IMG/VR virus record: IMGVR_UViG_2872192773_000004
Reading direction: 5' to 3' (one strand)
From: a virus
Lineage: Duplodnaviria > Heunggongvirae > Uroviricota > Caudoviricetes
DNA: 55,937 nt
Shown here: piece after piece, positions 25,336-28,300 of the stretch
Layout of the letters: every line of letters begins with the position of its first letter
Position numbering within the stretch: the first letter of the stretch is position 1
Program-made: the position numbers

Positions 25336-28300
25336 GTCAGAGTCTTTCAGTCTGCGATGATGGGAAATCCCGGAGTGACTGAAAGACGTTTAAGTTATGA
25401 ATGATCGCCTTTTTTTGCAAAATTGCTGTGCAGAAATACTAACCTTCGGGCGTGCGATCATTCATAAGCACTCTGCTTTTATTCCGATTAACTGTGGGTG
25501 GTTTGTTGGATAGAGTGCTTTCCTTACTGTATATATCGTTTCGCCCGCTTTTGCGTTTTTTTCTTTTCAAATCCCTTTCATTTCTCAGTGTAAAACTACG
25601 CCATCCGTTATTTGCGGAGGTGAGGCTATGAAATCCATGGACAAAATTTCAACGGGCATTGCCTACGGCACCTCCGCCGGCAGTGCCGGCTACTGGTTTT
25701 TGCAGTGGTTGGATCAGGTCAGGCCATCACAGTGGGCTGCGATTGGTGTGCTGGGAAGTCTGCTTCTGGGGCTTCTGACTTATCTGACGAATCTGTATTT
25801 CAAAATAAGAGAAGACAAGCGTAAGGCTGCACGGGGAGAGTAAATAATGAAGCATGAAGAAATGAATCAGCGATTCAATCACCTGGAAAATGAAATCACT
25901 GAGCTTAATAAAAAATTGTCGGCGTTGGTGAGTTCTGAAGATGAAAACAAACGCCGCGATGAGCATTATGCGGCGATTTACGATTACTGCCACAAAGTCG
26001 CTCACGAGACTTTTATGAAGTTTTTGCAGGAAAAGTTTTTACCGGCCGCATTGTCAGAAAAAGAGGCGGCTTACCTGCGGCCTGAGTACGTCATTACGGT
26101 TAACGGTGCCGGAGAGGAAGAGCATAAAAGTGATTTTATTGCGTCTGCACCGGATAAAGACCAGGAACCCCATCGGCCTTTCAGGGTTTCCTGTGAAGAG
26201 GGTGAGTTCGTCGTTTATGAGAACGGAAAACCTGTCCGGGCATCGCATCATCACTGCCTGAAAATTATTAATCTCGCTATCAGATGCCTGAAAGACGAAA
26301 ACACCAGAGTTATGAAACGCATTGGCCGTTGCATGGGGTATTTGCAGGTGGCGGCAGAGATTGAAGCACTTGCCAGTGGTGCAGACATGGATGCTGCGGT
26401 GCGGGAGGCTCTTCTTCGTGATTTCAATACTCCCCCTTTAAGAAAGAGCCTGATGACTGGATCCAGCCGGGGCTGACTTATCTTAAAAGGCGTATATAAG
26501 TTGGCTCGTTATTTGTTGCCGATAAATCCTGATAAATATCCATGAGCGCAAAAATCAAATACGGCCTGTCGGCTGCTGTTCTGGCGCTGATTGCCGCAGG
26601 CGCGTCTGCTCCCCAGATACTTGACCAGTTTCTGAACGAAAAAGAGGGTAATCACACAACGGCATACCGTGATGGTTCTGGCATATGGACCATCTGTCGT
26701 GGTGCCACAATGGTGGATGGTAAGCCTGTCATACCGGGAATGAAGCTGTCGAAGGAAAAATGTGACCAGGTTAACGCTATTGAACGTGATAAGGCGCTGG
26801 CATGGGTGGAGCGCAATATTAAAGTACCTCTGACCGAACCCCAGAAAGCGGGTATAGCGTCATTTTGCCCCTATAACATTGGCCCCGGTAAGTGTTTCCC
26901 GTCGACGTTTTATAAGCGGCTGAATGCCGGTGATCGTAAGGGCGCATGCGAGGCGATTCGCTGGTGGATAAAAGATGTTGGGCGCGATTGCCGCATACGT
27001 TCAAATAACTGCTATGGACAGGTTATTCGTCGTGACCAGGAAAGCGCATTAGCCTGTTGGGGGATAGATCAATGAGCAGAGTCACCGCGATTATCTCCGC
27101 TCTGGTTATCTGCATCATCGTCTGCCTGTCATGGGCTGTTAATCATTACCGTGATAACGCCATTACCTACAAAGAGCAGCGCGACAAAAACGCCGGAGAA
27201 CTGAAGCTGGCGAACGCAACCATTACTGACATGCAGCAGCGCCAGCGTGATGCTGATGCACTCGATGCTAAATACACGAAGGAGTTAGCTGATGCGAAAG
27301 CTGAAAATGATGCTCTTCGGCGCAAGCTTGATAATGGTGGTCGGGTGCTCGTCAAAGGAAAATGCCCTGTGCCATCCTCAGCCGAAACCTCCAGCGCCTC
27401 CGGCATGGGCAATGATGCCACCGTCGAACTCTCTCCAGTTGCTGGACGAAACGTTCTCGGTATCCGGGACGGAATCATCAGCGACCAGACAGCATTGAGA
27501 ATGCTTCAGGAGTACATCAGGACTCAGTGCCTGAAATAAATTTTTTTGCAAATCACAAAGTCCATTTAATGAGCCTCGCACTTGCGGGGCTTTTATATGT
27601 CCGCAGTAAACCGCGCATCGCAGCGCGTAACAATCCCGAGTCTTTCAGAAAGCTGAGCCTGAGAACTGCCGTATAGGTGAGGACCTCTCGGGGACGGCTT
27701 TTCTGTGCGAACAGGCTCAACTTTCTAAAGGAAATACCGACATGAACAAATCATTAACCGTTCTTCCTTCTGGCGAATACCCGACCATGAGCAGTCTTGA
27801 GATGGTGGATTACATTAATGCTGATCGGAAATCCAAAGCGGAGGCGGAGGGGCTTGCGTTCCCCTGTAAGAAATATCGCAAACTCGAACACCGCAGTTTC
27901 ATGAAGAAAGTACCCAGGGTCTGAGGTGTACTGGCAATAGCGGACACTACCATTTGTTCTTTTTTTAAGCAGCCATCTGATGATATTTTTCCCTGAAGGC
28001 TGCCGGGGAGATATTCCCCAGACGAGAGTGACGACGCTGACGATTGTAGAAAATCTCAATGTATTCCCGTATTACTGAGATGGCTTCATCCCGGTTATTA
28101 AAACGATAGTGGCTCAGGCTCTCATTTTTCAGCGTTCCCCAGAAGCTTTCCATCGGAGCGTTGTCGTAACAGTTACCTTTACGCGACATTGATGTTTTCA
28201 GACCAGACTGCTCCTGTATGACCCGGTAATCGTATGCGCAGTACTGTGAACCTCGATCAGAGTGGTGGATTAGCCCGGCAGGTGGGCGCTGGCTCCTGAG

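Follow-up and report, generated by a model that had tools for sequence, protein, structure and literature searches.

Among described systems, the one closest to the gene reported here is the YdfR family (PF07041, DUF1327), represented by YdfR of the Qin prophage of Escherichia coli K-12 (P76160; 103 amino acids, aa), whose gene lies between a class II holin gene and an RrrQ-type lysozyme gene. We analysed a 209-aa open reading frame (ORF) that occupies the same slot, with the same left and right junctions, in the Caudoviricetes record IMGVR_UViG_2872192773_000004 of IMG/VR, a stretch of 55,937 nucleotides (nt) hereafter called the window. On balance, this ORF is probably a degenerate member of the YdfR-family/phrog_1085 accessory genes found in the late operon of lambdoid prophages, and it counts as a variable accessory gene of the ordinary kind rather than as a novel lysis component. 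Late operons of this kind carry cargo between Q and the lysis genes, for example stx, nanS-p esterase genes and artAB-like toxin genes, and classical morons have their own promoter and terminator. For YdfR, two-hybrid and pull-down experiments found that residues 1-72 bind the N-terminal catalytic half of RNase E, and RNA co-purifies with the protein; its overexpression alters few transcripts, and ydfR has almost no RNA-seq reads in K-12 under standard growth (PMC13232886). The 209-aa protein was already present in RefSeq as a hypothetical protein, its family as phrog_1085, the long forms as the YdfR family and the slot in other E. coli prophages and in phages such as mEp460, so that the new points are the placement of the gene, its frameshift, the modular map, the correlation between slot and endolysin, and the gene position in Salmonella.

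Family placement and modular architecture

An earlier sequence-only reading of the window correctly reported the ATG ORF, which it could not place in any family. We found that the protein matches phrog_1085 (function unknown) strongly, over profile positions 117-288 of 296 (E 9.9e-74, 249 bits), and corresponds to the C-terminal module of proteins named 'YdfR family' by NCBI. It has 132 relatives among 5.8 billion clustered proteins, and all those with a source name come from E. coli or Shigella. Around 40% of them are longer (268-333 aa), begin with the Pfam domain DUF1327 and bear the NCBI name 'YdfR family protein'. For example, P0004 (333 aa, 'YdfR family protein') has a PF07041 score of 119.6 bits over its first 100 residues and shares 81% identity with the window protein across 94% of the latter's length. 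Homology of the window protein to these long proteins covers their C-terminal two thirds, with both coiled coil and core; the domain that defines the family is missing from it: DUF1327 (gathering score 25 bits) gave no match in it even at E up to 1, and no DUF1327-coding DNA was detected by tblastn in the whole window. K-12 YdfR consists of DUF1327 and a short helix only and has no segment in common with the window protein; its RNase E binding maps to the very domain that is missing here.

The family layout in alignments A1 and A3 is a head (DUF1327 or DUF1327-like) or none, a coiled coil (…LENEIAELNKKLS…), a further helix (KRRDEQFAAFYDYC), a variable acidic linker and a core with the consensus RPxFxVS…ENGK…SHxH…MKRIGRCMGYLQVAAEIEALASGAD…LLRDFNTPPFKKxPxxWxQPGLTYLKxRI. 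In a full member, the head is followed by a short coiled coil and then by a core of about 110 aa, the end of which is the tail PPFK..P..W..PG..YLK.R. The window copy begins at the coiled coil and is therefore head-less, so that phrog_1085 positions 1-116 (the head) have no counterpart in it; neither have the last positions (the tail), which were lost through a frameshift described below. Among the 107 intact relatives, DUF1327 is fused to the core in 43 long forms, against 64 short forms. At one E. coli locus (2015C-3121, L086 2501-3689), a short form of 213 aa, a separate 75-aa DUF1327 gene and a reverse-strand gene form a split version of the fused forms. The fusion and these neighbouring separate genes suggest that head and core may act in one pathway.

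Several features read from the sequence alone were borne out. No transmembrane segment is apparent, the highest Kyte-Doolittle mean over 19 residues being 0.76, versus 1.75 for the holin. The N-terminus is predicted to be a helical coiled coil, with a 3-4 heptad pattern (F10-L13-I17-L20-L24-L27) and a predicted local distance difference test score (pLDDT) of 79-88 over residues 1-20 in the AlphaFold model. Residues 1-64 also match phrog_36381, phrog_15975 and phrog_2091, and this module precedes other C-terminal domains in relatives, such as P0118, which has the same N-terminus and a different C-terminus. The centre is mildly acidic over residues 65-110 (10 D+E versus 5 K+R, pI 4.7), a linker not present in the 185-aa forms. 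The core shows invariant and near-invariant columns in A1, A3 and A5, with conservation reaching Salmonella. The HHHC motif is indeed present at residues 134-137, but it is not conserved: the column reads HQHS or xxHR in most relatives, H136 is the sole conserved histidine, C162 is partly conserved, and C137 and C147 are not. The reported C-x5-C motif is absent, the cysteines lying at positions 48, 116, 137, 147 and 162. A zinc or metal site built on these two motifs was ruled out, as the family has no conserved Cys/His ligand set.

Searches for a function gave little. Pfam and NCBIfam returned only sub-threshold coiled-coil noise for the window protein, and none of its seven PHROG matches belongs to the 'lysis' category, all seven being of 'unknown function'; no confident match to a known lysis accessory protein was found in these three resources. 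In PADLOC-DB, no defence family matched at E up to 1. Against PDB sequences, the profiles of A1 and A5 reached at best E 0.04-0.06, with unrelated proteins. A weak Pfam match of the core helices to YqeY (E 0.06-0.07) was rejected, as no member of the core alignment reproduced it. Structure prediction modelled the helical N-terminus and gave no overall fold: in two AlphaFold2 runs, mean pLDDT was 51.5 for the window protein (36 sequences) and 48.2 for the intact relative P0002 (53 sequences), and the two models agree on secondary structure only (a pair of long helices at the N-terminus, a linker predicted to be disordered, a meander of three strands and further helices). With the P0002 model, Foldseek found nothing in BFVD at E < 0.001. 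We found no work on this protein in the literature on ydfR, DUF1327 and genes between holin and endolysin.

Judging by its 132 homologues and by ratios of nonsynonymous to synonymous substitution (dN/dS) of 0.16-0.39, the ORF is a real gene and not a chance reading frame. The sequence-only reading was right in placing a soluble late-operon gene in the interval between holin and signal-arrest-release (SAR) endolysin. In the same pairwise codon comparisons (the window and five homologues from E. coli and Shiga toxin (Stx) phages), dN/dS was 0.00-0.14 for the holin and 0.03-0.12 for the endolysin. These ratios indicate purifying selection on the gene that is much weaker than on its neighbours, and at the protein level it evolves three to eight times faster than holin and endolysin. 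The idea that the ORF might be a fragment of the endolysin was ruled out, since it has a family of its own and the endolysin is complete in length.

In RefSeq, the exact protein is WP_001300760.1, 'MULTISPECIES: hypothetical protein [Shigella]', on at least 1000 contigs. Of 5426 complete E. coli genomes, 6 have the exact 209-aa sequence, one copy lying in a prophage next to mlrA in CFSAN029787. The ORF is annotated as 'hypothetical protein' in thousands of genomes of Shigella and E. coli, where it could now be named a frameshifted YdfR-family (phrog_1085) gene without DUF1327.

A frameshift and the lost tail

The C-terminus of the window copy is altered by a 1-nt deletion in a run of C. The window reads ACTCC-CCCTTT, with one base missing relative to the ACTCCGCCCTTT or ACGCCACCCTTT of relatives (CCGCCC or CCACCC), and an intact-core query matches the window in two frames by tblastn. 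As a result, the protein ends in …PPLRKSLMTGSSRG, with 12 unrelated residues in place of the conserved tail, and the other frame of the window encodes PFKKEPDDWIQPGLTYLKRRI and then the ancestral TAA stop (26497-26499), which lies 42 bp ahead of the endolysin. Both the 630-bp length of the ORF and the 65 bp between its stop and the endolysin ATG at 26542, correctly measured in the sequence-only reading, are therefore products of this deletion.

The tail (…PPFKK.P..W.QPGLTYLK.RI) is kept in 107 of the 120 listed cluster representatives, and its conservation extends to Salmonella and further enterobacterial relatives, W, P and Y being invariant. Alignment A5, which includes these relatives, has 11 invariant columns, four of which (K, W, P, Y) fall after the frameshift point; the window copy, with its tail out of frame, lacks three or four of the eleven family-invariant positions. 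By these alignments, the family has two regions of highest conservation, one of which is the lost tail. Other alleles have lost it too: P0042 and P0074 carry independent frameshifts, and two homologues are annotated as frameshifted pseudogenes.

The window copy is most likely an inactive or weakened remnant, because it is head-less, has lost invariant positions and lies in a Shigella-type prophage riddled with insertion sequences (IS). It is a poor starting point for experiments, both the head and the conserved tail being gone. We regard as highly improbable that the allele is fully functional, with the tail dispensable or restored in some products (…NTPPLKKEPDDWIQPGLTYLKRRI) by a -1 slip on C_CCT_TTA (26434-26440). 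The deletion does leave a formally perfect X_XXY_YYZ heptamer in the zero frame, and the tail codons are intact up to the TAA; moreover, at least 1000 contigs carry the allele, as does a prophage that looks intact. However, the heptamer is an automatic by-product of the deletion given an ancestral CCN-CCC-TTT-AAG, the intact codons are explained by a recent mutation, and the abundance is explained by clonal expansion of Shigella. A programmed frameshift was rejected, since no stimulatory structure is found downstream of the heptamer (z = 0.12 versus shuffles).

The slot between holin and endolysin

The ORF had been described as an insertion inside the lysis cassette, and a survey of holin-endolysin spacing in related prophages had been proposed to see whether the insert is variable. 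It is variable, and the slot is a standard one. Eighty IMG/VR loci were fetched by holin similarity, 73 of them with both holin and endolysin. Holin and endolysin abut in 26 of these, all with an R21-type endolysin (MPPSL… or MSPSL…). The other 47 have a gap of 312-1085 bp that holds in each case a gene of varied length beginning in DUF1327, and all have an RrrQ-type endolysin (MNAKI… or MSAKI…). Occupancy tracks the endolysin subtype perfectly (RrrQ 47/47, R21 0/26). Both junctions of the slot are conserved: on the left …GGGGAGAGTAA, a few bases and an ATG, on the right …CCGATAAATCCTGATAAATATCC and an ATG. The contents are mosaic and consist of DUF1327 alone (K-12 YdfR, phage mEp460), DUF1327 with other C-termini, or coiled coil and core; often there is in addition a convergent gene of 86-105 aa on the other strand. 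All homologues examined in complete E. coli genomes and in Stx phages occupy the slot described here, and the E. coli homologues sit among SASA/DUF6645 esterase genes. The window gene likewise has a class II holin gene on its left and an RrrQ-type lysozyme gene on its right, within a late operon of lambdoid type.

More remote relatives occupy a different position. The core profile retrieved homologues of Salmonella enterica at 36-47% identity, which match phrog_1085 as well, and a hidden Markov model search of 1.84 billion cluster representatives returned only 40 clusters, those looked up being enterobacterial. The longer clusters again combine a DUF1327-like head, coiled coil and core, as do the Salmonella long forms with their DUF1327-like head; no informative extra domains were found in the remote clusters scanned. 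In the Salmonella loci examined (L091-L097), the order is Q, the gene (+), usually a convergent 105-aa gene (-; lacking in L093), holin, lysozyme and Rz, so that the homologue lies upstream of the holin, which is of PF04971 in some loci and PF16080 in others. The endolysins beside it are 74-75% identical to that of the window, against 32% for the R21 type; the Salmonella loci compared, which have the core gene, carry an RrrQ-type endolysin even with the other holin family. Judged from these loci, the family is linked to one endolysin clade across genera, not to a fixed cassette position or to one holin family. The gene is optional, modular and quick to evolve, and in E. coli, Shigella and Salmonella it goes with a single clade of SAR endolysins.

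The convergent partner (phrog_1853, about 105 aa, function unknown) is homologous in E. coli and Salmonella and lies downstream of many YdfR-family genes. Its 3' end and the forward gene share 21 bp in E. coli locus L089; in L030 and L013, different reverse-strand ORFs overlap the forward gene by 53-59 bp, and in L086 an unrelated reverse gene, phrog_10490, takes the place of the partner. No phrog_1853 partner was found in the window by tblastn.

In the window, the start codon at 25847 is the fourth base after the holin stop TAA (25841-25843), as the sequence-only reading had it, and its Shine-Dalgarno sequence GGAG (25835-25838) lies within the 3' end of the holin gene. A crude consensus scan, which is weak negative evidence, found no promoter-like or terminator-like site on the + strand from the holin end to Rz, and accordingly no flanking promoter or terminator of the gene's own between 25843 and 26542. 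Since it lies on the late-operon strand downstream of Q, has no such site of its own and has its Shine-Dalgarno sequence inside the holin gene, the gene would be made together with holin, endolysin and spanins.

These features bear on a possible role in lysis timing, in which the protein would be a soluble cytoplasmic regulator of the pinholin/SAR-endolysin pathway, kept in step with the holin by translational coupling; P1 LydB and T4 RIII, soluble antiholin-type factors, serve for comparison, as does the holding of unexported SAR endolysin. The start directly behind the holin stop, the transcription unit shared with S, R and Rz, and the small soluble product encoded next to a holin and made at the same time are in keeping with it. 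So are the constant adjacency of the family to the holin-endolysin cassette in E. coli, Shigella and Salmonella and the strict association with RrrQ-type endolysins, which extends to the Salmonella loci compared, whatever their holin family. We nevertheless consider this role unlikely. The protein has no match to a PHROG 'lysis', Pfam or NCBIfam family. Coupling to the holin is not conserved across genera, as the Salmonella gene lies upstream of it, usually with the convergent gene between, and the family neighbours two unrelated holin families. The co-occurrence with the endolysin may reflect only linkage in one mosaic module, 26 of 73 slots are empty, and tail-destroying alleles are common, one being widespread in Shigella. 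Comparison shows that the family is not part of the core lysis machinery, because a third of the close cassettes are empty, Salmonella has the gene ahead of the holin, the protein changes faster than holin and endolysin do, and mutations that destroy the tail recur.

RNase E binding by the DUF1327 head is the only experimental lead to a function, and that head is missing in the window copy. With low confidence, an intact family protein could be seen as a soluble cytoplasmic adaptor of late infection that acts on RNase E or RNA: the head would dock on either, as found for K-12 YdfR, and the coiled coil and core might oligomerise or bind a second partner. Somewhat less likely again than the timing role is that RrrQ-type SAR-endolysin cassettes from E. 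coli to Salmonella have a cytoplasmic partner of their own, made up of head, coiled coil and core, which would couple late RNA metabolism (RNase E) or endolysin export to lysis timing; the window allele would then show that the tail is dispensable, or be rescued by -1 slippage. If the family does tune lysis or late RNA stability, it would add a new accessory layer to the pinholin/SAR-endolysin pathway.

Like the late-operon morons of lambdoid phages, the gene is optional mosaic cargo of the Q-dependent late transcript, with homologues among SASA/DUF6645 esterases in E. coli and near a Pertussis_S1-like gene in Salmonella (L091). It differs from classical morons in having no promoter or terminator of its own here, and in that the family stays tight by the lysis genes instead of being scattered. 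At L091 (2157-3469), a gene with faint Pfam matches to Pertussis_S1 and Scabin-like ADP-ribosyltransferases and a 106-aa gene lie upstream, in the cargo zone of the late operon.

A defence or superinfection-exclusion moron, that is, a gene that aids the lysogen by blocking other phages, was also weighed. AbiF in the lysis module of Clostridioides difficile prophages is a case of defence genes beside holin and endolysin (bioRxiv 10.1101/2025.04.15.648962). The mosaic, fast-evolving architecture with interchangeable heads and C-termini would suit such a function, as would the convergent small partner of many variants, which would need a promoter of its own. This role is slightly disfavoured, and we give it only a small chance: PADLOC has no match, and a gene that lies on the late-operon strand and lacks a promoter-like site ought not to be expressed while the lysogen is repressed. 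In K-12, ydfR reads are nearly absent under standard growth (PMC13232886). Moreover, the protein has no membrane segment, which is unusual for exclusion proteins, and the convergent partner is not in the window.

Some observations weigh against our preferred reading of a degenerate YdfR-family accessory gene. The strict co-occurrence with RrrQ-type endolysins (47/47 E. coli and 3/3 Salmonella loci, 0/26 R21) also fits a lysis role. The frameshifted ORF is still open for 209 codons, so that loss of function is a deduction, and the same allele is present in the apparently intact prophage of E. coli CFSAN029787. Both AlphaFold models are poor and lend no structural support to any function. Finally, the adaptor mechanism relies on guilt by fusion, the experimental data being for the head, which is absent here.

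Lysis cassette and prophage context

The features of the locus are collected in Table 1. Holin, endolysin, Rz and Rz1 are all identifiable, as had been stated.

Table 1. Features of the lysis region and of the 209-aa ORF; positions refer to the window unless a locus is named.
Feature	Position	Strand	Basis or remark
Antiterminator Q gene	24409..24825	+	PF06530 Phage_antitermQ, E 6e-54; late operon start
Four tRNA genes, Q-holin interval	25025..25335	+	ARAGORN; anticodons CAT, TCT, TGT, TCC
P21-type class II holin (pinholin), 71 aa, Met1 and Met4 starts	25628..25843	+	PF04971, E 5.5e-35
209-aa ORF, probable YdfR-family/phrog_1085 member without DUF1327 head	25847..26476	+	ATG ORF, profile match and alignments
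Predicted helical hairpin/coiled-coil module, residues 1-64	25847..26038	+	AlphaFold helices 3-28 and 31-64; heptad pattern
Variable mildly acidic linker, residues 65-110	26039..26176	+	pLDDT 33-47, predicted disordered; gapped in A1
Conserved core, residues 111-197	26177..26437	+	Predicted small beta-meander, then helices, GRCMGYLQVAAEIEA motif; A1, A3, A5
C5 run with 1-nt deletion	26432..26436	+	DNA alignment A2; two-frame tblastn match; frame shifts after Pro197
Out-of-frame remnant of family tail (FKKEPDDWIQPGLTYLKRRI)	26438..26499	+	Translation of the other frame; ancestral stop TAA 26497-26499
Right-hand slot junction, …CCGATAAATCCTGATAAATATCC then ATG	26500..26541	+	Near-same sequence in nearly all occupied-slot loci compared; L077 diverges
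RrrQ-type SAR endolysin, 177 aa	26542..27075	+	PF00959, E 5e-24
Rz i-spanin	27072..27539	+	PF03245, E 4e-30; phrog_13; start overlaps endolysin stop (ATGA)
Rz1 ORF, embedded in Rz	27292-27498	+	ORF list
Terminator-like hairpin and T-run, 3' of Rz	27571..27592	+	Consensus scan
IS3-family element, first of a cluster reaching 31373	27915..28976	-	rve and HTH_21 domains; repeat families D1/D2, I3-I7
phrog_1853 partner	L001 3777-4091; L089 2449-2769; L090 2202-2558; L091 4599-4916; L094 4521-4838	-	Homology

The endolysin has a Gly/Ala-rich hydrophobic N-terminus that forms a SAR-like segment, and no obvious Shine-Dalgarno sequence precedes its ATG. The right-hand junction is almost invariant among loci with wholly different slot contents and includes the tandem repeat GATAAAT…GATAAAT; it could be a junction left by recombination, or else an atypical start region for translation. 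The only other hairpin on the + strand of the cassette (25676-25690) lies inside the holin gene and is probably due to chance. The four tRNA genes are annotated in near-identical E. coli prophages as well; ARAGORN calls the first tRNA-Met (CAT), versus tRNA-Ile in RefSeq for these prophages, and the remaining ones are Arg-TCT, Thr-TGT and Gly-TCC.

At least eight IS copies lie in the window. An IS3-family element is present in at least four copies (933-1996, 15196-16286, 27915-28976 and 30287-31373) and a second IS element in three (2405-3659, 5392-6641 and 17097-18351), with a further transposase ORF at 29023-29691. Shigella typically carries such numbers of IS. The prophage looks decayed and of Shigella type, and it is likely to be defective. 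The IS cluster at 27915-31373 comes directly after the Rz terminator and separates the lysis genes from the structural genes. A 60-aa ORF behind this terminator (27742-27924), without Pfam match, ends around 40 bp before the IS transposase ORF and may be the remnant of a gene cut by the IS insertion. In the apparently intact prophage of CFSAN029787, the region matching 27742-27924 carries ParD/ParE-like and KilA-N genes.

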